Of a stretch of DNA of 38,721 nucleotides, positions 662 through 32,004 are shown in pieces (within the stretch, counting starts at the first letter, position 1; each line of letters begins with the position of its first letter). The stretch comes from an uncultured archaeon. Lineage in GTDB: Archaea; Asgardarchaeota; Lokiarchaeia; Sigyniarchaeales; SOKP01. A program made the position numbers and the translations under genes. The notes under the pieces were generated by a model, which worked only from the letters and a program-made list of their open reading frames with translations, did not search any database and was not told where the DNA came from. The stretch is taken from contig CAZGJX010000030.1 in the NCBI GenBank assembly GCA_964525635.1, positions 1-38,721 on the forward strand, given 5' to 3'.

Positions 662-1834
662 TTACTTTTTGGAAATTAATAATTTTACTTTTTCTTTTAA
701 TTCCTCCAAATTATAATTTTTTAATTTATCCTTACATCCCAACTCTTTTAATTTTTTAATAAGTATCTCTTTTTCATTAATTAGACTCTTTTCTTTGAAC
801 TCTAAAAAGCTTAAATGATCGGTTTTAGCTCTTTTTTTATTTAGTTCTTCTTCTGGAACCTTTGATAATAATTCTCTAACATCATTTATTTTATTGAATT
901 TTTCTTTCATTTCTTTCATAACTTGTATTTGTCCACTCAAGATTTTAGGATCTTTATCACTTCTTAATACTTTTAGAGCATTACCATCAGTTAATGAAAA
1001 TTTATCGTTATTTCTTGATGGTGATTGTTGATTAGGAGGAGGATTTAAATATGCTGGATATCCCATCATGTTTTGGGGTGCCTGAAGATAAATTGGAGCT
1101 GAAGGACCATTGCTGTTTTTTAAAGCGATTTTCCTAATAGTTGAATTCAGTCTTTTTACATCTCGTTCCAATTGTTTTACCTTTTCATATCCTTCACGAA
1201 CTATATGAAACGTTGTTTCCCAAGATTTATCTTCTTTTAATTCAAGCCATTTCTCAAATTCACTATAATTTAATGAAATCGTTATATTTTTTCTGGTAGA
1301 TTTTTGTAAACTGCCCTTTTTTCCAACGATTTCTGTTTTTATATTCTTCGTTTTCACAATTTTTTGTTTTTGGGATTTTTGAGGATTAATTCTATTTAGA
1401 CTTCTTTTTTTTAAGGAATATTTTGTTTTTGTTTCAAATATAAGTTCTTCTTCAGTAATTTCAATAAGTTCCCCATCATTATAAGAAATTTCAGATAATT
1501 GGAAGGTTTTATTTAAAAATATATCTTCTCTATCACCAGAATAGTAAAAAATAGTTAATCGAATGACATTTATCTGTAATTTATTTAAATCAGAAAGACC
1601 TCCTAATTGAATTGAAAAAGAAATAATATCTGCCGAAAAATAAATATTTTTTATAGAAATTAAAAAAGGTTCTTGTATTATGTAAGGAGCTCTTTCTTCT
1701 TTTTTGGACAATTCATATTTTATATTAATACTCTTAACATTTTCTTGGATTAATTTTTGTTTTTCTTCGTCAATCTTTTTGAATTTAAAGATTAACCTAT
1801 TTTGATCCTCCCAAAACAATTGTAAGAGTTCCAT
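662..1834 (-). CDS. Hypothetical protein: N-terminal beta-rich region, basic linker, coiled coil, Pro-rich segment and helical C-terminus
   Basis: 390-aa ORF with a coiled-coil-like stretch (YEKVKQLERDVKRLNSTIRKI) followed by GPSAP...NPPPNQQSP. No family recognised with certainty. Confidence 0.8.
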   Translation of the reverse strand: MELLQLFWEDQNRLIFKFKKIDEEKQKLIQENVKSINIKYELSKKEERAPYIIQEPFLISIKNIYFSADIISFSIQLGGLSDLNKLQINVIRLTIFYYSGDREDIFLNKTFQLSEISYNDGELIEITEEELIFETKTKYSLKKRSLNRINPQKSQKQKIVKTKNIKTEIVGKKGSLQKSTRKNITISLNYSEFEKWLELKEDKSWETTFHIVREGYEKVKQLERDVKRLNSTIRKIALKNSNGPSAPIYLQAPQNMMGYPAYLNPPPNQQSPSRNNDKFSLTDGNALKVLRSDKDPKILSGQIQVMKEMKEKFNKINDVRELLSKVPEEELNKKRAKTDHLSFLEFKEKSLINEKEILIKKLKELGCKDKLKNYNLEELKEKVKLLISKK

Positions 1835-2093
1835 ATTATATTTAAATCCTATTTCTCCTGGATTTTACTAAAAAAAAATACTCTTAATTCTATATTTACA
1901 TTAAAGAATTTAAAATCCAATAGGGTACTAATTTTTTAATTTAAAAAACATAAGTTAGAACGCTCAAATATTGAATTAATAATATTAATCAAAAATCGAA
2001 GACAAAACAAGAATTCATCATTATAATTTTTAATTATTTGAATTTATTTAGACTAAAAATAAAAAAAAAAGAAAATAATTTTATATTTATAAA

Positions 2094-3074
2094 TTATATT
2101 AAATGACTCCAATCATAAGGTAATTCCAATTTGAATTCTAGAAACATACCTCCATACCAACAGCTAAAGTCTACAATTATATTAAGTTTAACATTTGTTT
2201 GTAACATTCCAAGTATATAAGGAGTATCTATTAGAATAGTAATATTTAGGGTGCTAGACTTTGAAAAGCTAGGAATATTTCCTAGTGAGGAATTTAAAAT
2301 ACCTCCAACTTTTGTATTTGCAATTAAAGCAGGAGGACTACTATTATTTAATGTCCAGATTTCAACATCTAGATTTATATCTCTTATAGCGTAAATACCA
2401 CCATTATCCATACTAAATAATATTGAGATACCTATATTATCATCACCATAAACACCTGGAGTTCCATTTTGATCCCAATAAAAACCAGCACTGGGATTTA
2501 AATTAGGTCTAAGTTGAGATCCACTAGCTAATAAACTAATTATATAAGCTAATAGGACTAAACTTGTGAGGGAACTAAATCCTTTGAAAACTCTGAACCA
2601 TTTAAATTTACCTTTGCGAGGTTCGCCAGCTTTATTTTGTTTATGAATTTCATATGCTTCAAATAAATATCTCAGACCATTAAAACAAGCATTTGCTAAA
2701 CATAAGTATGCAATTATTTTAACTCCTATTAATATGGTAATATCAATTGGATCTATAGATTTAGTTATACTAAAATTTCCTAAATCTACTCCTGGGTTAA
2801 ATCCACCAAAGAAATAGAAAAGAAAAATCCCTGAATATACTGTTATTAGGAACATTAATAAGCTATTAGCAACAGTATCTTTAGGATAAGCCACCTTGAG
2901 CATTGATATAACTATTCCAGCAATAGCAAAAGGAATCATCATATAAATGAAATCCATATTTAAAGCAAGTATACCATAATAATCAAGAGCAAATAAGACG
3001 CCATATGGTATGCCCAAATAGAAAATTGCAACTATGATTCCGTGAAGAATCATTTTACCAATTCGAATTTTCAT
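2094..3074 (-). CDS. Membrane protein with about 5 TM helices and a C-terminal extracellular beta-sandwich-like domain; paralog of 3237..4208
   Basis: Hydrophobic helices occupy aa 1-185. Motifs shared with the neighbour: MILHGII, YPKxT, YSGxxLFYFFGGF, LGNF, GVKIIA, NxGxYAI, NTKVG. Confidence 0.85.
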   Translation of the reverse strand: MKIRIGKMILHGIIVAIFYLGIPYGVLFALDYYGILALNMDFIYMMIPFAIAGIVISMLKVAYPKDTVANSLLMFLITVYSGIFLFYFFGGFNPGVDLGNFSITKSIDPIDITILIGVKIIAYLCLANACFNGLRYLFEAYEIHKQNKAGEPRKGKFKWFRVFKGFSSLTSLVLLAYIISLLASGSQLRPNLNPSAGFYWDQNGTPGVYGDDNIGISILFSMDNGGIYAIRDINLDVEIWTLNNSSPPALIANTKVGGILNSSLGNIPSFSKSSTLNITILIDTPYILGMLQTNVKLNIIVDFSCWYGGMFLEFKLELPYDWSHLI

Positions 3075-3236
3075 TTTGATAACATTTTTTATAATTAAGT
3101 TTATAATATTAGATAGAGATTTTTAATTAAAATCTATGTTTTATAATTTTTATTTCTTGAAATTAATGGGAAATCAGAATTATAATATAATTATAATCAT
3201 AAATAAGGAAATAAGTAGAAATATACTAAAAAATGA

Positions 3237-4208
3237 TCAAATCAAAGAATTCCATTCTGTTTGATAACAGAAAGTAAAATCAATATATATCCCCCCGAAA
3301 GTTCCACTAAAAATTATTTTTAATTGAAGAACTGCATCAGTAAGAACTAATCCAGGAACGTAGAGTGTATCAATCATTATAATCATTTGTTGATTAATTA
3401 TCTCAGAAAATGCGGGAAATTCATTGTAATGTATCTGAGATGTTTCTCCAACTTTTGTATTTTCAGGTAAAATTAAAGAATTATCCGTTGAAAGTGTACA
3501 TATCTCGAGTTTTAATTTGACATTCTTAATAGCATATACTCCTCTATTATTGAAATCGAAATGTATAGTAATATTCAATTTGTCATCATAAGCATCAAAG
3601 TATGTGCCATTATTGTTATAATCTAAATCATTAATTGGATCAATATCATATAATTTAGGTAAAATAAGAGATCCACTAATAATAAGGCTAAATATATAAA
3701 AAATAAGAATTAAATTAGCAAAAATTGAGCCAATTCTAAGATATTTACTTACTTTTTTTTTTTTTATCTCGATTCTAGTATTCTTTTTATAGAGTTGGAT
3801 GATTTTAATTAAATATTGAGAACTTTTAAAAAAAGTACCTAATAACAATAACCATGCAATTATTTTAACACCAAGAAGAATATTTGCTTGTTCTGTTTCA
3901 ATATGAAAGTTTCCTAATTCAAAACCCAGTTCAAATCCTCCAAAAAAATAAAAAAGATATAATCCTGAATATATTGCTATTATAAATCTAATTTGGTTAT
4001 TTCTTAGAGTATTTTTAGGATAAGAATATTTAATCATATTTATTCCAGTCCCTATACTTCCCATAATGACGAGAGTAATAATAAAATCAACGCTAAATGA
4101 AATAATATTGAATAAGTACAATCCATATAACATTATTATTGGGAAAATGATATAAAAAAAAGCATGTATAATTCCATGGAGAATCATACTGTGACTTTGA
4201 ATAACCAA
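3237..4208 (-). CDS. Membrane protein with about 5 TM helices and a C-terminal beta-rich domain; tandem paralog of 2094..3074
   Basis: Colinear motif matches with the adjacent gene over the whole length. Start uncertain (TTG at 4208 or the ATG of MILHG). Confidence 0.85.
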   Translation of the reverse strand: MVIQSHSMILHGIIHAFFYIIFPIIMLYGLYLFNIISFSVDFIITLVIMGSIGTGINMIKYSYPKNTLRNNQIRFIIAIYSGLYLFYFFGGFELGFELGNFHIETEQANILLGVKIIAWLLLLGTFFKSSQYLIKIIQLYKKNTRIEIKKKKVSKYLRIGSIFANLILIFYIFSLIISGSLILPKLYDIDPINDLDYNNNGTYFDAYDDKLNITIHFDFNNRGVYAIKNVKLKLEICTLSTDNSLILPENTKVGETSQIHYNEFPAFSEIINQQMIIMIDTLYVPGLVLTDAVLQLKIIFSGTFGGIYIDFTFCYQTEWNSLI

Positions 4209-10994: not shown

Positions 10995-11906
10995 ATGTCA
11001 GATAAAATTTCTTTATTTAATAAAAGGTTTCTTTTTCTTTTAATTTCATTTATTATATCATTTTTTTTTATTGGTTTGATAATTTTTCTAGCAAGTCCAA
11101 GTACAAAAGGAGTTTTATTTGGATTAGAAATGCCTCCAGAGTTTGTATCACATTTTATTAATCTATTACCAGGTCCTCTATGGACGGATATATTATTTTT
11201 ATATGGAGCTCCTATTTTAATGTTTATTATTATATCTTTTATCGCACCATATACTAATAAAGGATTTGTAAAAATACATCGTATTTTTTATATATTCAGA
11301 CAGAAACCATTCTATGGATTATGTCTTCCCTCGACAAAAATTTATGCTTCGAAATTAATTTTCCGTTCAATTATGGCAGGTTTTTTATCATTTGTCATAT
11401 CAGCTTATTTTGTACAGATAGGTTTAGGTCATTTATTTCGATATGGATATGCTCCATCTGAATTATTTGTTGCAGAAGCTACATTCTTAGGTACATTCTT
11501 TTTTCTTCCATTTGTCCTACTATTATTTTTTATTTTATGGGCTCTAGAAGACTCAGGAATTGTATCTTATAGAACATTTAAAGATAAAAGAAAAAATGTT
11601 GACATTAATGGAGTATATAAAATATATAAGGGATTTGTAGAATATACTGTAGGATTTTCAACACTGATTCTTTATTATGTCATTACAAATGATGCATTAA
11701 TAAAACATAATCCAGGAGATCCTGCATTCTTAATTCCTTTAATTTTATTTTTTCTACCATTTATTATATGTGGATTCTGTGCAATTCCTATATTTTTATA
11801 TGAAAAATACTTTGATAGAACATTAAAACGAGTAAAACTTTATCTTAAAAATCAGGGATATAATGAAATTAATATACCAGAATTTGAAAATATAGAGATT
11901 AGATAA
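10995..11906 (+). CDS. Uncharacterised membrane protein with about 6 TM helices; homologous to the C-terminal membrane domain of 22940..25561
   Basis: Six hydrophobic segments. WALEDSGIVSYR matches YLLDDAGIVYFR in the 873-aa protein. Confidence 0.85.
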   Translation: MSDKISLFNKRFLFLLISFIISFFFIGLIIFLASPSTKGVLFGLEMPPEFVSHFINLLPGPLWTDILFLYGAPILMFIIISFIAPYTNKGFVKIHRIFYIFRQKPFYGLCLPSTKIYASKLIFRSIMAGFLSFVISAYFVQIGLGHLFRYGYAPSELFVAEATFLGTFFFLPFVLLLFFILWALEDSGIVSYRTFKDKRKNVDINGVYKIYKGFVEYTVGFSTLILYYVITNDALIKHNPGDPAFLIPLILFFLPFIICGFCAIPIFLYEKYFDRTLKRVKLYLKNQGYNEINIPEFENIEIR

Positions 11907-20649: not shown

Positions 20650-22233
20650 TTACCAAACTAAATCATTAATGACTTCTTGCGCTTTTTCTGATACTCTTTT
20701 ACCTAAAATCCTTTTTACGCGAAGATCACTAATGGCTTGCTCAAGTTGAGTATCTAGATTCTTAATTTGATCCATAAGATTTGACTTATCGCCTTCTTTC
20801 TCAACTAAATTAATAACTGGATTATATTTATTCATAAGATCTTCAAGTTTACTCCTAAATTTTTCTTTAACTTTAGTCGATACTATTTTCGAGTTATCAA
20901 CTAAAATAGGAAGGACAGGTACTCTTTTTGTTGTTCTTTTAGTGTTTGGATCTGTAAAATGAAATATAAATATAGGAATCCCAACCACAACATCTTTAGT
21001 TTTTAATTCTATTGTGTAGTTCTTAAGAAATTGTTGTACACCATTCATTTCCTGATCTTTTACATATTCTATATTGTCTAAACAAGCTTGTTTCACTCGT
21101 TTTATAGTAGTCACTATCTCTTCAGCAGATACAGTTTTACTGCTAAGATCACTATGCTTGTTTTCAATCTGCCTTTCGACATCAGCAATTTTTCTCTCTA
21201 AATCAGTAATTCTCATTTGATGCATTTTCTCTATATCTGAAATTTCTCGATCTATATTTCTGTGTAGCTGATTAATTTCATTTTGATATCTATTAATCGA
21301 ATTTCCCAATTCTGCATATCTCATATTTAATTCTTTCATTGCTTCATCAAGTAGAAAAAGCTCCTTTTTATCAACAGCATTTTTTACTCTTCCAATGGAA
21401 TTTTTAAATGAATCAATATTATTTTGAAATTCACCTGTTTTATCATTTATTTTATATTTACCCGATTTAATTAATTCTTCTGGAGTTGCATGCAAGTCTC
21501 TTTCTTTCTCTTGTTGCAATTCTTTATTTAATATGGCGAGTTGTTTTTCCTCTTCACTTGTATCGATCTTTGTATCCCTAAATTTATCAGCTTCTTGAGC
21601 TCCTTTTTTAACCCATTTTTCACACAATGAGATTATTATTTCACTATACTTATCAAGCATTTTTACATCCTTTTGCTCAATAAATTCATATATATCTTGA
21701 ACCATTTTTATCTGATTAACACTTTTAGAAATAGGATCTCCTTCTAATAAGAAATAAGAATTTGAAAAGGAACTTATATTATATTGATTTAGAAAAAAAG
21801 TTTTGAAATAATCAATATCAGCAGCAGTAAATAATGCCTCTTGAATTATTTTTCCTCTATTAAAATTAGAGGATTTACTTAGATGTCTTTTATTATAATT
21901 TTCTAACGATGTCAAAAAAGAAACTGGATCTGCCCCAGTTATTACATTATCTGGTTTTGGAGGAATTTTTTTAAATTTACCCAGATATAATGTTTCCTGT
22001 GTATTTAGAAGATAAGAGCATACGCAAGCACGAGTTTCATTTAAAGGAATCAACCGAACTGGCCAAAAACATGCTGTAATGTGATGAACTTTTCCAAGCT
22101 TTTTTAATTTAACACCATAAATATCAATCAATTCTACTAAACCCATAGCCATTTCATTTAAAAGTGTAGCTAGGGCCCTAGTAGGAATAATGTCCCCTAA
22201 ATTAATTAAATAAGGAATGACTCTATCTACCAT
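20650..22233 (-). CDS. Conserved-looking hypothetical protein with a long central coiled coil between globular termini
   Basis: 527 aa with heptad repeats at about aa 225-400. GGTGA ribosome-binding-like site upstream. No Walker A motif. Confidence 0.85.
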   Translation of the reverse strand: MVDRVIPYLINLGDIIPTRALATLLNEMAMGLVELIDIYGVKLKKLGKVHHITACFWPVRLIPLNETRACVCSYLLNTQETLYLGKFKKIPPKPDNVITGADPVSFLTSLENYNKRHLSKSSNFNRGKIIQEALFTAADIDYFKTFFLNQYNISSFSNSYFLLEGDPISKSVNQIKMVQDIYEFIEQKDVKMLDKYSEIIISLCEKWVKKGAQEADKFRDTKIDTSEEEKQLAILNKELQQEKERDLHATPEELIKSGKYKINDKTGEFQNNIDSFKNSIGRVKNAVDKKELFLLDEAMKELNMRYAELGNSINRYQNEINQLHRNIDREISDIEKMHQMRITDLERKIADVERQIENKHSDLSSKTVSAEEIVTTIKRVKQACLDNIEYVKDQEMNGVQQFLKNYTIELKTKDVVVGIPIFIFHFTDPNTKRTTKRVPVLPILVDNSKIVSTKVKEKFRSKLEDLMNKYNPVINLVEKEGDKSNLMDQIKNLDTQLEQAISDLRVKRILGKRVSEKAQEVINDLVW

Positions 22234-22360: not shown

Positions 22361-22873
22361 TTATTCGGAATTTAATATTTTCAATTTGTCTTTAGGTAGA
22401 TTTGTGAAAAATTCAATTTTATTTTTCTCAATCATCTCCACGTTTAGATAAGATGGATAATAACCTGAGGATTGTAAATTGAATGGAGAGAACACTTGTA
22501 AAAGTTTTTTGGATCTACGAACAAGAAAGCTTATTAAAAGATATTGTGTGAAATCAAATTGACTTAATAATCTTATTGCTTTAAACAATTGTGATAACTT
22601 AACATTGAAAAAAGGTGGATCACATAGAATAATATCAAATTTTTCATCTATCCATACTGGTTTTTTAATATTAAATTTATGAAAACCAGAGATATTAGCA
22701 AATCTTGTATCTATATCTAAAATACTACATTTTAAATGTTGCCTTACACAAGCTTCACCAACTTTAGGTACACATAATATACAAGGATTAGTATATTGCT
22801 TTAAAAATTCAACAAGAATAGATATCGTTTGTTTGTTAAAAAAAAATTGCTCATTTTCATATATTTCATCCAT
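22361..22873 (-). CDS. Stand-alone SAM-dependent amino-methyltransferase resembling the ZCCHC4/EEF1AKMT1(Efm5) family
   Basis: Ordered motifs: EQFFF, CILCVP, ILDIDTRF, FDIILCDPPF, YxPxY, FFTNLP. Confidence 0.75.
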   Translation of the reverse strand: MDEIYENEQFFFNKQTISILVEFLKQYTNPCILCVPKVGEACVRQHLKCSILDIDTRFANISGFHKFNIKKPVWIDEKFDIILCDPPFFNVKLSQLFKAIRLLSQFDFTQYLLISFLVRRSKKLLQVFSPFNLQSSGYYPSYLNVEMIEKNKIEFFTNLPKDKLKILNSE

Positions 22874-22939: not shown

Positions 22940-25561
22940 TTAATCATTGTCTTCTTTATTTTTTATTGGTAACCCAGATGGATAGAGATTTGTTAATTTT
23001 TTAGGTTTTATAACGTATCCTTTTGTCTCCATCTTCTTATATAGCCGCTGAGTGTTATCTTCTAATGAAAACTCCATTATTTCTTGTGAAAGTAAAATAT
23101 ATGAAAAAGCAGTGAAAAATGGAGTTCCCCAAAAAATTACTATTACCATGAAAGTTCCAAATATTATCATTTCTTCTTGGAAAAATCCACTAAAATCTAC
23201 ATTTGAAAGAAATTGGAAAAAAGTTACTAAAGCAGATATTCCCGCTACTCCCTTAATCATTGATTGAGACCATACACTTATCGATTCAACATCTCCTGGT
23301 TTTCTATGTTTTTTTGATTGACGGAAGTATACTATTCCAGCATCATCCAATAAATAATTGCCAGCTATAAAAAAAGAAAATAAAATAAATGATAATATCA
23401 TTGGAAGTATACATAAAAGATTATAACCAACAATAAAATCAAAAAATTCTGTTGAACCAAACCTTGTAAATTTCATTGTATAACCAAGGATCGGAGATAA
23501 AGTATTATATGAATAGAATCCTATTGCAATTGATAGTAATAATGGTAAAATAACTCTTTGGATTTTAATTAACGTTCCAACATCTGTTCTGTTTTCCATA
23601 TCTAGTACAATAATATCATTGTGATATTTCTTTGAAATCTTGAAAAATAAATCACGCAATTTAATAAAAAAGAAAGCAAAATGAGGTGCAAAATGATTAA
23701 ATATAGCAGCTGTTAATGGTAACATTCCATACCATATAATTGAAACTGAAATAAATGCAACTGTAATATCGGTCATACTATATCCAGCAATAAGTATCTG
23801 ATTAAATATATTAATTTGTAAAAGAAATAGGAAAAATGTAATTGACATCAACATAATTGTCATAAAATTGACGAATATCACCAATTTGCTTTTTTTTATT
23901 TTTCTAAAGATTTCTTTTCGTCTTAGATTCAATTTCCTACTATTACGTATCAATAATAATATTCCAATAAAAATAAATGCTACAAATAATATAAAAAGAG
24001 GAATTCCAAATGGAAAGTCAGAAGAAAGCCATACAGCAACAGGGTTTTTAGTAGACAATATGGTAATTCTCTGCCATCCAATAATTAATAAATCCTTTTT
24101 GTTATCGTTATTAAAATCATCGATAGTCATTAAACGATTAACATCAGTATCGGTATCAATTATGACTAAATTATCATTTTTTATTACATTTTTAATGTAA
24201 AATCTTTTAATTTTATTAGGAGAGAGAAAAGGTTGGATTTCCTTAACCAAGACCAGCTCATTAATTTTATCACCATCTAGATCATCATCTAATGCGTAAA
24301 ATCTTATAGGCTGCTCTGTGATTTTTTGATACTCCCAAATGAGATCATTTGTACTTGCATCAATTTTATATACATATATCTCATTATAAACTCTTGTATT
24401 ATTATTTGAAGGGATTTCTTCATAATCGAAATTTCTAATATAAATATAAGCTTCATTAATATCCTCATCATATCCAATTTCCTTTAATTCTAGGCTTTCA
24501 GGTTCATAATTTAGTTGGAAATCAAAAGAATTTAAAAGTGTTCCGTCTATCCCTCTATATATATCAATAATGACATGTGTACCATTTTCTGTTAGAACAA
24601 AGATTTCAAAATTATCATCTGAGTCTAAATCTTTGATAATATCAAAGGACTGTATATTTGATGACATTGAAATATTATAAATTGGATCTGAATAACTTAA
24701 ATTAGCAGTATCTAAAAGAAGTATATTATTATTATCTTTAAATATTAATTGTTCCAATCCATTATGATTATACAACCTAATTTCAGGAATATCTTTTGGA
24801 TTGTTATACAAATTTTTATATTCTATCGTATTTCCAGTATATTTATTATATTTTTTTGTACCATCGATAAAATAGCTAGTTAAATTTACATTGAAAGGAA
24901 CATCAATGGTATTATTAGAGATTTCTAAACAAAAGAAATCTTCAAAGGATTCAGAGAGATCACTCAGACTAACACAATCAATAATTCCATATGTATCAAA
25001 ATTAGCATCTGTTTCGATTTTTGACCCATTATTACCACTTATAATAAAATTGTCAAATTGATCGAAATATATTAATGGTTCTTTATATGGTTTCCCATCA
25101 AACCCATATTTAATAACCCAATTTTCATCAACGGTTGCAACACTAACTAAATAATCCAATGTATTATCACTGTTTATATCTGCAATTGGGAAAACTTTCT
25201 TTACAGGCCCTTCAAATTCTTTATTCCAAATTTTAACTCCATTAATACTATTAAATGCAATAATACCTCCAAATTGAGGATTATTAGCGTGAGTTAATTC
25301 TTCTTCTTCATTTGAATCTAAAACTTCAATATCTAAATAAATAATTATATCATTAGTTCCATCTTTATCAAGATCATCAGCTGGTAAAGCAAAGACATCT
25401 ATTGGATATTGATCTTGAAAATCTGACCAAATCCAACCAGGTGTTGTTTCCATCTGAGTAATGAAAATTATACCTAGTCCTCCAAAAATGAGTAGAGAAA
25501 TAGATATAAGAACTAAATTGACAGGTTCAGATCTTATCTTTTTAAATTTTCGTAAATTCAT
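22940..25561 (-). CDS. Membrane protein with an N-terminal anchor, an extracellular FG-GAP/VCBS-type Ca-binding repeat domain and about 7 C-terminal TM helices
   Basis: Repeats: DDLDKDGTNDII, ADINSDNTLDYL, KDLDSDDNFEIF, DDLDGDKINELV, DDFNNDNKKDLL. Seven hydrophobic segments after about aa 515. Confidence 0.85.
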   Translation of the reverse strand: MNLRKFKKIRSEPVNLVLISISLLIFGGLGIIFITQMETTPGWIWSDFQDQYPIDVFALPADDLDKDGTNDIIIYLDIEVLDSNEEEELTHANNPQFGGIIAFNSINGVKIWNKEFEGPVKKVFPIADINSDNTLDYLVSVATVDENWVIKYGFDGKPYKEPLIYFDQFDNFIISGNNGSKIETDANFDTYGIIDCVSLSDLSESFEDFFCLEISNNTIDVPFNVNLTSYFIDGTKKYNKYTGNTIEYKNLYNNPKDIPEIRLYNHNGLEQLIFKDNNNILLLDTANLSYSDPIYNISMSSNIQSFDIIKDLDSDDNFEIFVLTENGTHVIIDIYRGIDGTLLNSFDFQLNYEPESLELKEIGYDEDINEAYIYIRNFDYEEIPSNNNTRVYNEIYVYKIDASTNDLIWEYQKITEQPIRFYALDDDLDGDKINELVLVKEIQPFLSPNKIKRFYIKNVIKNDNLVIIDTDTDVNRLMTIDDFNNDNKKDLLIIGWQRITILSTKNPVAVWLSSDFPFGIPLFILFVAFIFIGILLLIRNSRKLNLRRKEIFRKIKKSKLVIFVNFMTIMLMSITFFLFLLQINIFNQILIAGYSMTDITVAFISVSIIWYGMLPLTAAIFNHFAPHFAFFFIKLRDLFFKISKKYHNDIIVLDMENRTDVGTLIKIQRVILPLLLSIAIGFYSYNTLSPILGYTMKFTRFGSTEFFDFIVGYNLLCILPMILSFILFSFFIAGNYLLDDAGIVYFRQSKKHRKPGDVESISVWSQSMIKGVAGISALVTFFQFLSNVDFSGFFQEEMIIFGTFMVIVIFWGTPFFTAFSYILLSQEIMEFSLEDNTQRLYKKMETKGYVIKPKKLTNLYPSGLPIKNKEDND

Positions 25562-25859
25562 AATTAAAAATATAGTCTATTAATCTTATTTAATTCTAAG
25601 CACTTACAACTCAAATATAAAAACTTTTAATGTTTTTAATTTTTATAAAAAGTTATAAGGTTTAAATTAAATTATTTGTAATTATCAAAAGAAATAGTAT
25701 CAATTCTTATTTGAATATTTTAATTTAATACTTTATACTGAAAAAAATATAAATAAATCTAAAAGTAAAATATAATTTCATTAATTGAAATATTTTTTCT
25801 CTTTAATTAAGGAATATTTAATTTTAAATAAAAAAGGAAACTAATTGAGGTATTTGAGT

Positions 25860-26396
25860 ATGCACAATGATCACATTGATTATATGTATAAGGTAATATT
25901 AACAGGACCCGGTGCAGTAGGTAAAACTAGTTTACTTCATAGATTTATAACAAATACTTTTCAAACTAATTATAAAATCACAATTGGTGTAGATTTTATG
26001 AGTAAGACTATTGAAATTCACCCAAATAAAAAAGCTAAGATGACAATTTGGGATATCGGAGGACAGGATAGGTTTAAATTTCTCAGACAAAGCTTTTATG
26101 ATGGCGCTCATGGAGCTCTATTAGTATTCGATCTTACAAGAGCTGCAACTTTTTATGAAATGAAAACATGGCTAGGAGAACTCCATCAATCTCTTGGAAT
26201 AAATACTCCATTCATATTAATTGGAAATAAAATGGATTTAATTAGGGACATAGGAGAATGTATAGACTCAAATATAGCAAGGGATTTTGCTCAACGATAT
26301 AATAGTGTTTATATTGAAACATCTGCGAAAACAGGTATTCATGTGGAAAATGCTTTTCTAAGGTTGACTCATATGATGTTGAATAGAAATTTTTGA
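25860..26396 (+). CDS. Rab-like small GTPase (Ras superfamily)
   Basis: G1 GPGAVGKT, G2/RabF1-like TIGVDF, G3 IWDIGGQDRF, FYDGA.GALLVFDLT, G4 GNKMD, G5 ETSAK. No C-terminal Cys motif. ATG at 25860 (GAGGT upstream) preferred over TTG at 25845. Confidence 0.95.
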   Translation: MHNDHIDYMYKVILTGPGAVGKTSLLHRFITNTFQTNYKITIGVDFMSKTIEIHPNKKAKMTIWDIGGQDRFKFLRQSFYDGAHGALLVFDLTRAATFYEMKTWLGELHQSLGINTPFILIGNKMDLIRDIGECIDSNIARDFAQRYNSVYIETSAKTGIHVENAFLRLTHMMLNRNF

Positions 26397-26584
26397 AGAA
26401 CATCCATATAAAGTTAAAACGTCGTAAATAAAAACTATTAATTTTGAAAAGTATTCTTTATTGACAATTTTACCATAAAAATATATATTTAATAAATATA
26501 TTCGGTTAATTAAAAGTATATAAAATTTTTTTGTTATATTTTAGTTTCATTTCTAATAAAATAACAGAGAATTAAGGAAGAATC

Positions 26585-27382
26585 ATGCAAACTTATCCAG
26601 AATTAAAATTTCTGATTGTAATTTTAGGAATAATAACTTTATTTATTACTGTAATAGTTTATTTTAAACGTAAGGATTTAAAATATTATTTTTTAGTTTA
26701 TATTATATCTACAATTGGAACTTTTATTGATGCGGGAACAGAAATAATGGATCCTGGAGGAATTGGAAATTCGTTTAAGGATATATTCTATTTTTCAGGG
26801 GCTCTAATATTATTCGTTACAATCTTTAAAGAATATTTTGATATATTTCTCAAGAATAATTATTCTGAAGCCAAATTAAGATCAATTGGAATATTTTCCA
26901 TTTTTTCAAATCTATTTATTATTTTTTATGTACTTGAAGTAATTACATGCATATTCTTATCTATATGTGTTATTATGTTGTTAAAAATCTATTTCAAGAA
27001 AAAAACCATCACCCATGCCTTTATAAGTCTTTCTATTTTTCCTGTGCTGTTAGCGGGAATTTTAAATATATTTAAACAAGCACGATATAATAATTTAGAA
27101 GTATATGTTGTAGGTCTTAATATGATTTTTTATACTGTAGTTCTCACAACAGTTATTGTTGCATTATTAGATCAAAAACTTTTAGTTGCTAAAACTGAAA
27201 AACTCTATATGAAAGATAAGTATTCTCATGAGTTAGGAAATATTTTTCACACAATTTCTATGGCGTATGAACTTATGACAATATCAAATAGTAAAGATAG
27301 TTTACAGGATGAAATGGATATAATAATTAAAAAAAAAATCAATGAAGCATCTGAACTTGTTAAATTTATCCGAAATTTATGA
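26585..27382 (+). CDS. Membrane protein with 6-7 TM helices, ending in a HisKA-like H-box hairpin without an ATPase domain
   Basis: Hydrophobic aa 1-195, then KDKYSHELGNIF and a second helix (INEASELVKFIRNL), then the stop. Confidence 0.8.
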   Translation: MQTYPELKFLIVILGIITLFITVIVYFKRKDLKYYFLVYIISTIGTFIDAGTEIMDPGGIGNSFKDIFYFSGALILFVTIFKEYFDIFLKNNYSEAKLRSIGIFSIFSNLFIIFYVLEVITCIFLSICVIMLLKIYFKKKTITHAFISLSIFPVLLAGILNIFKQARYNNLEVYVVGLNMIFYTVVLTTVIVALLDQKLLVAKTEKLYMKDKYSHELGNIFHTISMAYELMTISNSKDSLQDEMDIIIKKKINEASELVKFIRNL

Positions 27383-28383: not shown

Positions 28384-31300
28384 TTATTTAAAGTTTAATA
28401 AAGCAAAAGCTATTAACTTAGTATTTAATTTTCCTTGGTTTTTTTTTATCATATCATTTTTAAGATCAGTATAAAAAAAAGAGAGATTATCTAATTTTTT
28501 GTCTAATTTAATAATAATATTCTTCATAAATCGAATTTGTTCCTCTAATTCTTGTATTTGGTTTAACCGCTTTTGTCTTTGTTTCTCATCTTTTAAGCTA
28601 TTAATTCTGTTTAATTGTTTTTCATTTGGGAGATTATCAATTTTTCTTTTAAGTTTTATATTGAGAATATTTTTTTTCTTTTCTAACACTTTTTTTTTAT
28701 AATGATATAATTTCTCTTTTTTATTAATATCAAGGTTGAAAATTTTATCATTTAATGTTGTTATTTCATTTTTCCAGTTTAAGTTTTTTTTCTTTACCAA
28801 ATTCCTAGCTTTTTGACGTAAATCGATAATTCTATTTTTCCCAATATTAGGAAATCTTATATTTTGATTATTAAAATTGTATAATATATCATAATCTTTA
28901 ATATCTAATATGATCTCTTCAAGATTTTTAAGTTCAATTCCTCTTTCATCAACAATAATCGCAGTTATTACATTTTCTATAATATATCCATGAAATGAAT
29001 TGTTAAATACAAAAAGGAATAAAATATCATTATTATCATCAATAATAGTATTATTTTTGTTAATTACATCCTTATTTAAAGTTAGAATCGAGAAACTTCC
29101 TGAAAAAGTCTCCCCAATACAAAATTCAATAATAGAATTAATTAAAGGATGACCTAAAGCAAAGAAGTCTATTTCTTCCTTATTTTTAGCAATTTCCAAA
29201 TCAAAAGTACCATAATACTCTTCTAAAAGCTTTTGATAAGAATGGTTTTGTAAAACCTCTTTTAATACTATTTTTGATTCATAATTAATCGGATTTTCAT
29301 TATTTTTTATAGTAGAATTAAGGTTTTGAATATAACCAAATTTATTACTATTAAGATTAAAAAATAAGTTAATTAAAAGAAATAATTCATTATGACTTAA
29401 TTTGACATCTTCACATGAAGAAATAAATGAGATTAAATCTTTCATTTGAAATGATTTTTTATCAATTATAAAGTCATCAAGTTGCATTTCGATTTCTGTT
29501 AAATTTTTTAATTGATTTTCCAGATCAAAATTAAATTCTCTCAGTTTTCTCTGCTTTTGCTCAGGTTCAGAAAAGATTAGGTCCTTAAAATCCTTTTCAA
29601 TACTTCCAATAATAGGTTCAAGATAACCTATAGATTCCTCAAAGAGATTAATCCTTTTATTTAAAGCAAATAGTATATCTGCCTCGATAGTCCCCTCCAT
29701 AAAGAGATTATAAATATATAATTTCCTAGATTTTTGACCAATCCGATCAAGTCTCCCTATTCTTTGTTCGAGTTTCATAGGATTCCATGGGAGATCATAA
29801 TTAATAAGGACTCGACAGAACTGAAAATTTCTTCCTTCGCCACCTATTTCAGTTGAAAGTAAAATAGATAATTTTTCACTATTTCTAAATCGTTCTACAG
29901 CTTCATATTTTTCAATCTTATTTAATCCTCCATAAAAAGTCTCGATAGTATATAGATTATGATTTTTCATTAACAAATCCTTCAAATAAAGTAGAGTATC
30001 AACAAATTGGGTAAACACCAAGATTTTTTCTTCAGGATTGTTTTTATATATTTGATTAATAATCTCAAGGAATTTATCTGATTTTGAATCATATGGTATT
30101 GCAACTAATTTAGAATGAAATTCTCTAAGAATATTTTCTTGATTAAGAACATTCATAAAATTTTTATTAGTTCTAGCGGACTTTGGTTTTAAAATATCAA
30201 TTTTAGATTCTATATCAAGGTATTCTTCTTCTAATTCAGATTGAAAAAATTCAGGGTCATCATATTTGATATGCTTAAATTCTTCTGAAATGTTTTTTAG
30301 ATTATTAATTTGTTTTAATCTCCTTTCAAGGCTATTTAAAATAGCATATTTAGAACTAGTAAGTAGTTTCTGTAGAGTGGTTATTACAAAACCGATCCCA
30401 GGATTTTTATTACTCATAGCAGAATTATAGATTTTTGCTAAATATAGACGGATTTCATTATAAATATCTAATTCTTCTTTAGTAGGATGAAGCATTATCG
30501 TCTTTACAATTCTTTCATTCAATAGATCTTTTGGAAAGATATTTTTTTTTCTGTTTCTGATTAGAAATTTTGATAATGTATGATCCTTTTCTAAATTTCC
30601 AATTAAAAGAGATTTAGCATCTGAATTTTTAATATATTGAATTATTTCTTTATTTGATTGATTTTCATTTATATACCCAAATTCTTTTAATAATTTAATG
30701 GTATTTTTTAATTCAAATGTATTTAATTTATCAATTTGGTTTATATTTGAAGCTAAAAGATTAATAAAGGGTATATTCTTTCTAAAATGTTCAAAATCAG
30801 AAAAATTTCTAAATAATTCTGGATGAATAAGCTCTATTAATGAAAATAATTCAAATGAATGAAGTTGTAATGGCGTAGCAGTTAATAATAATAAACTTTC
30901 ACAATTTTCACTTAATTTTTTAGCCAAAGAAAAATTCATTGTTTCTCTATAATTACAAGTTGTTATATTTGTTGAATATCTTCGTAAATGATGTGCTTCA
31001 TCAAAAATAACTACATCCCATGAAATTTGAGATAATAAATCTCGATATTTAGGATTTCTGGCAAAGTGAAGTGAACATATAATAAGATTATCATAATAAA
31101 ATGGATTTTCTAATTGGTTTGAATATTTATTTGTTCCTTTTTTTTTAAGATTCTTATATCTTTTTCCATCATATATTATAAAATCTATATTAAACTTATT
31201 TTTCATTTCAAATTGCCATTGCTTTACCAAAGTAGCTGGTACAATTATCAAAATCCTTTCAACTAAATTCCTTGCAATCATTTCTTTCATATATATTCCC

Positions 31301-32004
31301 GCTTCAATAGTTTTCCCAAGACCAACTTCATCCGCTAAAATTACCCTTGGGAAAAATTCTTCTGAAAGTCTATGAGCTACATTAATTTGATGTGGCATTA
31401 AAGTTAATCTTGAATTGGTTATACATTTAATATGATGAGATTTATAATATGAATTAAATAAATTTGCCCAATATCTAATTAGGAAGTTTTTAGGAGGATC
31501 AATATCCTTTTCTATTAATTGGTTTTTTAAGTTGGATAAAGGTTTTAGGATGATTTCAGATTCATAAATTTGTGAAGTCTTTCCATTTGGTAATAATACC
31601 TCATAAGAAAGCTTACCATCTTTAATTAAGATTTCAGAAGAATTAATTATTCCATTTTGATTTTTAAATTTGATTTCTTCATTGATTCGAAATATATAAT
31701 GTATTAAATCAATAGGATGGATGATTTTAGAAAGATTATTTTTAAATTTTACTTTAAATTTAACAATGAAAGAGAGATCTTCCTCATCAAAGGATTTAGA
31801 AGTTGGGATTTTGATTTTTTTAACTATTTTCCCTATCCCAAAATTTGGATTTAATCTATACAAAACTAAATTATCTTCATTAAATTCTTTTCCATTACAA
31901 TATATGTTAAAACATTTAGAAAATCTCGAAATCAGACTATTATTACAAAAAGGACATTTATATTTTAGTTGAATATCAATTTCATTCTCAAAATCTTTAT
32001 CCAT
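28384..32004 (-). CDS. SNF2-family (RapA/HepA-like) ATPase with an N-terminal Cys4 motif and a C-terminal coiled coil
   Basis: Motifs: LMPHQ, ILADEVGLGKTIEAG, VPATL..QW, DEAHH, LLLTATPLQ, KILVFTQF, STEIGGEGRNFQF, NYDLPWNPMKLEQRIGRLDRIGQ, plus RapA-like GTF..GHPLI. Confidence 0.93.
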   Translation of the reverse strand: MDKDFENEIDIQLKYKCPFCNNSLISRFSKCFNIYCNGKEFNEDNLVLYRLNPNFGIGKIVKKIKIPTSKSFDEEDLSFIVKFKVKFKNNLSKIIHPIDLIHYIFRINEEIKFKNQNGIINSSEILIKDGKLSYEVLLPNGKTSQIYESEIILKPLSNLKNQLIEKDIDPPKNFLIRYWANLFNSYYKSHHIKCITNSRLTLMPHQINVAHRLSEEFFPRVILADEVGLGKTIEAGIYMKEMIARNLVERILIIVPATLVKQWQFEMKNKFNIDFIIYDGKRYKNLKKKGTNKYSNQLENPFYYDNLIICSLHFARNPKYRDLLSQISWDVVIFDEAHHLRRYSTNITTCNYRETMNFSLAKKLSENCESLLLLTATPLQLHSFELFSLIELIHPELFRNFSDFEHFRKNIPFINLLASNINQIDKLNTFELKNTIKLLKEFGYINENQSNKEIIQYIKNSDAKSLLIGNLEKDHTLSKFLIRNRKKNIFPKDLLNERIVKTIMLHPTKEELDIYNEIRLYLAKIYNSAMSNKNPGIGFVITTLQKLLTSSKYAILNSLERRLKQINNLKNISEEFKHIKYDDPEFFQSELEEEYLDIESKIDILKPKSARTNKNFMNVLNQENILREFHSKLVAIPYDSKSDKFLEIINQIYKNNPEEKILVFTQFVDTLLYLKDLLMKNHNLYTIETFYGGLNKIEKYEAVERFRNSEKLSILLSTEIGGEGRNFQFCRVLINYDLPWNPMKLEQRIGRLDRIGQKSRKLYIYNLFMEGTIEADILFALNKRINLFEESIGYLEPIIGSIEKDFKDLIFSEPEQKQRKLREFNFDLENQLKNLTEIEMQLDDFIIDKKSFQMKDLISFISSCEDVKLSHNELFLLINLFFNLNSNKFGYIQNLNSTIKNNENPINYESKIVLKEVLQNHSYQKLLEEYYGTFDLEIAKNKEEIDFFALGHPLINSIIEFCIGETFSGSFSILTLNKDVINKNNTIIDDNNDILFLFVFNNSFHGYIIENVITAIIVDERGIELKNLEEIILDIKDYDILYNFNNQNIRFPNIGKNRIIDLRQKARNLVKKKNLNWKNEITTLNDKIFNLDINKKEKLYHYKKKVLEKKKNILNIKLKRKIDNLPNEKQLNRINSLKDEKQRQKRLNQIQELEEQIRFMKNIIIKLDKKLDNLSFFYTDLKNDMIKKNQGKLNTKLIAFALLNFK

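Follow-up and report, generated by a model that had tools for sequence, protein, structure and literature searches.

An Asgard membrane protein with a predicted extracellular β-propeller and an unannotated six-helix module, and its relation to a neighbouring small GTPase

Does a propeller-bearing membrane protein of an uncultured Lokiarchaeial archaeon act together with the small GTPase encoded beside it, or are the two genes neighbours by chance? The question arises from contig CAZGJX010000030.1 of GenBank assembly GCA_964525635.1 (Asgardarchaeota; Lokiarchaeia; Sigyniarchaeales; SOKP01), of which positions 1 to 38,721 were analysed (hereafter, the window). A gene for a polytopic membrane protein of 873 amino acids (aa; 22940..25561, minus strand) stands head-to-head with a gene for a Rab-like small GTPase (25860..26396, plus strand), which is followed by a gene for a 265-aa membrane protein (26585..27382, plus strand). 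A first-pass annotation, made from the sequence alone, had read this layout as an integrin- or adhesion-receptor-like protein that may signal to the GTPase. The layout itself was confirmed from the open reading frames (ORFs): the GTPase ORF spans 25845-26396 on the plus strand (183 aa) with a likely ATG at 25860, and the divergent starts lie 298 bp apart when counted from that ATG, close to the ~300 bp first given. The propeller, the GTPase and the kinase fragment are of known kinds, and a three-gene signalling locus is not supported, while the membrane module of the 873-aa protein and its architecture are new within the scope of Pfam, NCBIfam, PDB, BFVD and the literature searched.

Membrane topology and the propeller ectodomain

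The 873-aa protein was characterised from its ORF, hydropathy, structure models and an alignment of 47 distinct full-length orthologs. Hydropathy gives an N-terminal hydrophobic helix (residues 16-34) and seven further hydrophobic segments with alternate loops basic, in line with the N-terminal anchor, long ectodomain and seven basic-looped transmembrane (TM) helices first described. The seven segments after the ectodomain stand, but the N-terminal helix (TM0, residues 13-36; 25454..25525, minus strand) appears to count as well. Its mean conservation among orthologs (0.74) is like that of the other helices and contrasts with 0.48 for the propeller, and relatives that have no propeller retain both TM0 and TM1, joined by a short loop. 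These observations point to a retained TM helix, not a cleaved signal, and to eight TM helices in all.

After TM0 comes a 485-aa acidic stretch (87 D/E versus 36 K/R), which holds the predicted β-propeller (residues 39-505; 24047..25447, minus strand). Five DxDxDG-type loops were located at residues 63, 128, 311, 427 and 482, in keeping with the "at least five" reported earlier; 10,000 shuffles of the ectodomain region never gave more than two, a favourable control because the loop pattern was derived from these same repeats. In the structure model the repeats form the closed β-propeller that had been expected, and each of the five loops lies in a blade between its strands A and B, the first two. 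Residues D311, D315, D427, D431, D482 and D490 are at least 95% conserved among orthologs, and calcium binding by the loops is predicted from the motif. The propeller looks eight-bladed, a count that rests on the strand pattern and structural matches because the full-length model is modest. The ectodomain is predicted to lie outside the cell from the positive-inside rule, its acidic composition, the basic loops on the opposite side and the N-glycosylation sequons, seven of the protein's eight falling within it.

The DxDxDG loop between strands A and B is shared with VCBS/FG-GAP-like calcium-blade propellers (Pfam PF13517; Bap1, YesW/YesX and FAM234/ITFG-type proteins), as set out in passages of PMC8023676. 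Homologs gave weak Pfam matches to FG-GAP_3 (8/8), CGLA (3/8) and FAM234A/B (2/8), the 873-aa protein itself falling below the Pfam cut-off, and Foldseek matches of the propeller include Bap1, KICSTOR and YesX. Unlike the VCBS/FG-GAP-like propellers, the present ectodomain is predicted to be looped between two helices of an eight-TM protein, and a six-TM module after the propeller is found in none of those systems. The integrin alpha head is likewise a calcium-loop propeller outside the cell (Foldseek E ~1e-5), but integrin alpha has seven blades, legs, a single TM helix and a GFFKR motif, whereas the 873-aa protein has about eight blades, no legs, a predicted eight TM helices and no GFFKR, its propeller running straight into TM1. 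No GAP/GSP motif was found in the ectodomain, and integrins were absent among the 50 best VIA rows for the propeller. The closed propeller and the receptor-like topology of the first-pass annotation are supported; the likeness to integrins is only loose.

The six-helix module and its family

Residues 559-860 (22982..23887, minus strand) form a module of six TM helices with a cytoplasmic three-stranded sheet, modelled with a predicted local distance difference test (pLDDT) score of 90.7 and a predicted template modelling (pTM) score of 0.85. The module matched no Pfam or NCBIfam family. In the structure libraries searched (PDB and BFVD) it did not resemble any transporter or enzyme of known fold, a match that the first-pass annotation had named as refuting its reading. 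The most conserved region in the ortholog alignment is the cytoplasmic TM5-TM6 loop (0.85). A family signature lies at the cytoplasmic ends of TM5 and TM6 (Y/W-L-L-D-D-A-G … W764 … K-G-x-A-G; residues 736-774; 23240..23356, minus strand), in which D740, L738, G742 and G771 are kept in 96%, 90%, 87% and 86%, respectively, of 207 weighted members.

The names attached to homologs indicate Lokiarchaeia/Promethearchaeota, and the ortholog search covered 161 genomes of the class. Besides full-length orthologs, it returned many weak matches to residues 530-860 in open frames of ~290 aa, which are standalone proteins bearing the same motif; when 34 divergent members were compared with the ortholog alignment, profile against profile, the probability was 99.3 over 274 columns. 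A family profile search recovered 581 clusters at 50% identity, of which the best 150 were inspected. All named family matches seen were Asgard-labelled or within this phylum. Family matches occurred in 214 of 332 genomes of the phylum in a profile search that scored only six candidates per genome, and one sampled bacterial phylum gave one marginal match in 101 genomes. Two records labelled Deferrimicrobium and Bathyarchaeia (L206 and L209) have Asgard-type gene neighbourhoods and phylum draws, and their labels are probably wrong.

This genome encodes 13 family members of at least 190 aa, and a standalone 303-aa paralog lies within the window (10995..11906, plus strand; E 6.1e-17 with the family profile, motif aligned). 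A TatD gene adjoins this paralog, and a TatD-like neighbour recurs in its relatives (L069, L207, L211, L213, L216, L219 and L224). Another member (G000 C54:12020-12928) is split into ORFs of 204 and 81 aa.

Three architectures were observed: six TM helices alone, eight with a short TM0-TM1 loop (430-500 aa), and eight with a large ectodomain at that position (830-1430 aa). The ectodomain is thus a modular element. A FastTree phylogeny of 168 of the 207 members (close orthologs thinned, midpoint root) placed all eight-TM forms in one clade (support 0.915). Since the propeller-less eight-TM forms are nested inside this clade, propeller loss would be the simpler reading. The propeller-8TM gene is tandemly duplicated in two genomes of genus g13 (L049:6739-12072 and L158:244-4620).

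Adhesion and class C G protein-coupled receptors (GPCRs) likewise follow a large ectodomain with seven helices and share the out-to-in polarity of TM1, and GPCRs fill the module's weak Foldseek lists (best E 0.51, a weak match). Unlike GPCRs, the 873-aa protein has a conserved TM0 with a basic N-tail, its family unit is six helices, and its ectodomain would be tethered at both ends. GPCRs are marked by GAIN/GPS, DRY, NPxxY and CWxP, none of which was found in the 873-aa protein. The adhesion-GPCR-like layout proposed earlier is therefore recognisable only in outline, and the likeness of "propeller plus 7TM" appears superficial.

Synteny with small GTPases and candidate functions

No small GTPase was present at any of 29 ortholog loci with 1.5-kb flanks, nor at any of 38 loci outside the genus, where 373,400 bp of flank (32 loci with at least 3 kb upstream) would be expected to hold ~3.3 GTPases at the density of this genome (39 short GTPases). 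Congener loci were examined with flanks of up to 6 kb. In congener G037 a GTPase ortholog (75% identity) lies 2.3 kb upstream of the propeller gene with a GH3 gene between them; in G036 the ortholog sits at a contig start that could join the propeller ortholog's contig; in the third congener the propeller locus is interrupted by a contig end. Among 18 more distant loci (L031-L048), one propeller form (L043) faces a GTPase.

The GTPase of the window matches Pfam Ras at E 3.8e-48 (163.6 bits, cut-off 21.6), and its G1, G3, G4 and G5 motifs are present in alignment. As the first-pass annotation stated for Asgard small GTPases, it has no prenylation tail: it ends in ...MMLNRNF and, unlike eukaryotic Rab, has no C-terminal prenylation cysteines, a condition that passages of PMC10933270 report for Asgard Rabs. 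Its subfamily, with up to six copies per genome, keeps a different neighbour. A SNF2/RapA-like helicase gene (28384..32004, minus strand) is the conserved tail-to-tail partner. It is found so arranged in both congeners (G036 and G037), where the ortholog of this helicase directly follows the GTPase, and, outside the genus, at 13 of the 27 best loci. In genus g11 (L285, L286, L291, L292, L295 and L296), two or three paralogous small GTPase genes in tandem stand tail-to-tail with a gene for a SNF2/RapA-like helicase.

Linkage of the GTPase and the propeller gene is confined to the genus. A dedicated three-gene unit, in which the receptor acts on the adjoining GTPase and the kinase-less HisKA protein plays an accessory part, would account for the head-to-head arrangement in this genome, the nearby or possibly adjacent orthologs in two congeners and the distant locus L043. 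It is nevertheless very improbable and largely refuted by synteny: GTPases are missing from all 38 loci outside the genus, the GH3 gene intervenes in a congener, the GTPase subfamily goes with the helicase, and congeners do not have the HisKA gene at this locus. Lack of linkage to GTPases in related genomes is the outcome that the first-pass annotation had itself named as refuting. The genes for the GTPase and the truncated kinase look like chance neighbours, not dedicated partners. A genome rearrangement would have brought the GTPase–helicase block against the propeller gene in this genus, and the kinase-less gene would have been inserted into that block in this genome. Lack of synteny is compatible with binding to some GTPase, because small GTPase genes of MK-D1 and other Asgard archaea are generally not in operons with their regulators, according to passages of PMC10933270.

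At the family level a GTPase association can be traced among standalone members. An arrangement Vps4 < Snf7 > PfkB > 6TM, not every gene of which is visible in every cut-out, was found at 22 of 60 standalone loci examined, and a small GTPase at 17 of these 22, either directly upstream of the six-TM gene (nine) or two genes upstream, between Snf7 and PfkB (eight). Four measured gaps between the GTPase and six-TM genes were 116, 2, 1 and 12 nt. In a sister group another GTPase type lies directly upstream (12 nt in L266), downstream or on both sides; the two groups, the former associated with the endosomal sorting complex required for transport (ESCRT), group in a single standalone clade (32 tips, support 0.994), near which three different GTPase types lie. 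In this genome 2 of 13 family members adjoin a short GTPase, versus 63 of 3468 genes (1.8%) and 11 of 374 multi-TM genes (2.9%). On the other side, adjacency occurs in only 4 of 42 family sequence clusters (many loci having only 1.5-kb flanks), the linked loci are close kin and reduce to a handful of events, five of the 22 ESCRT loci have no GTPase, genomes hold 34-85 GTPase matches, and propeller orthologs outside the genus have none in 373 kb. The signal is suggestive and no more. That the conserved cytoplasmic face recruits or regulates tail-less Rab-like GTPases, the propeller form being a ligand-gated version, we consider unlikely. The bolder version, an Asgard-invented fold that docks or activates such GTPases, some at ESCRT sites, with the propeller form as a ligand-gated surface receptor, we regard as a long shot; if true, the closest relatives of eukaryotes would have evolved, independently and without GPCRs, a counterpart of receptor-to-G-protein signalling.

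Within family f1 (L237, L238, L241, L244, L247 and L256), the order Vps4 < Snf7 > [GTPase] PfkB [GTPase] 6TM is followed by two further genes, one for a 280-aa protein that carries an N-terminal CxxC motif, the other for a membrane protein of 159 aa. The Vps4–Snf7–PfkB–6TM arrangement of this genome appears to be divided between the ends of contigs C56 and C166. The main text of the ESCRT paper PMC10936438 makes no mention of PfkB.

The reading that we favour, at about an even chance, is that the 873-aa protein is a surface-binding protein, most likely an adhesion or sensing receptor with a cytoplasmic partner. An eight-bladed, calcium-stabilised propeller would face the cell exterior, looped out between TM0 and TM1, and this variable domain may bind a surface ligand, for instance a glycan or a protein carried by a substrate or partner cell. 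The last six helices would be an ancient Asgard membrane module whose conserved residues, clustered on the cytoplasmic side, could dock an intracellular partner. Ligand binding and signalling are thus putative. Several points weigh against this proposal. The full-length model is modest (pLDDT 68.8, pTM 0.54, 8 sequences), and the best structural matches of the propeller are BamB, EMC1 and WD40 scaffolds, not adhesins. Since most family members have no large ectodomain, the core activity can do without a propeller, and a lipid- or small-molecule site made up of the conserved R669, D740 and K770 with an acidic residue at 830 is equally conceivable. An HSP20-like gene at 27 of the 38 ortholog loci outside the genus (head-to-head in those inspected) could point to envelope stress, though these loci are close kin.

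There are two further alternatives. A transporter, channel or lipid scramblase of new fold, whose propeller captures substrate, for example as a calcium-dependent lectin for polysaccharide fragments, would suit the many paralogs per genome (a frequent feature of transporters), the conservation of some polar positions in TM4-TM6 and the GH3 gene adjoining in one congener; DxDxDG propellers also include lectins and sugar-acting enzymes (PMC8023676, in part). The family alignment shows no conserved charged residue mid-membrane and no His/Cys metal set, in keeping with the favoured surface-binding reading, and we hold the transporter alternative to be improbable. A helper in membrane-protein biogenesis or quality control would use its propeller as a chaperone platform, as BamB or EMC1 might, both of which are likewise eight-bladed. 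The propellers of BamB and EMC1 are not known to have repeated calcium loops, and no β-barrel or insertase partner was seen in the propeller-gene loci; such a role seems rather doubtful.

No description of the six-TM family was found in the literature searched, and the terms propeller, receptor and GPCR do not occur in the part of PMC12962969 consulted. Published Asgard catalogues probably include the family already as a function-unknown cluster, and it may overlap with the Asgard-eukaryote clusters for which a portion of 10.64898/2026.10.28.762692 gives the annotations class C GPCR, 7TM proteins and a membrane family without characterised function. Passages of PMC9834061 and PMC13716822 describe many unidentified surface proteins, adhesive protrusions and crawling in Asgard cells and cultured Lokiarchaeia, and how Asgard tail-less GTPases reach membranes is called open in part of PMC10933270. 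The six-TM family is a concrete candidate here, being widespread in the phylum, with a dozen paralogs and an optional calcium-propeller cap, and its module, modelled with confidence and matching nothing in the PDB, offers a small conserved cytoplasmic patch as a target for mutation.

The truncated kinase and other genes of the window

The 265-aa protein has five hydrophobic segments and the isolated H-box noted at first reading. Its His215 aligns with the H-box of full-length kinases, and it has no HATPase_c catalytic domain and no Pfam HisKA match of its own. It shares homologous sensor helices and the H-box with membrane histidine kinases (HisKA plus HATPase_c), being 23-30% identical to longer proteins, of which those inspected are kinases of 433-474 aa. 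Unlike them, it stops at the end of the dimerization and histidine phosphotransfer (DHp) hairpin, after DHp helix 2 in alignment with membrane histidine kinases of 433-446 aa. Six copies occur in four genomes of the genus, and all four copies aligned stop at this point. The protein is a stable, shortened version of a membrane histidine kinase and may serve full kinases as a phospho-acceptor or as an inhibitory partner. In 3/3 congeners it lies on contigs other than that of the propeller gene, and only in this genome at this locus. Besides the gene of the window, this small genus-level family of truncated sensor and DHp proteins includes G000 C33:26331-27131, L101-L103 and L106.

Directly downstream of the 873-aa gene and co-oriented with it is an N6-adenine methyltransferase gene (22361-22873, minus strand), which is kept in three congeners (L122, L123 and L160) and was not seen at the inspected propeller loci of other genera. 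A gene for a 527-aa coiled-coil protein without clear family (20650-22233, minus strand) stays in the vicinity of the propeller gene across several genera (L122, L123, L125, L050, L159 and L160). Elsewhere in the window (662-4208, minus strand), three consecutive ORFs of 390, 326 and 323 aa gave no Pfam match at E 0.1.

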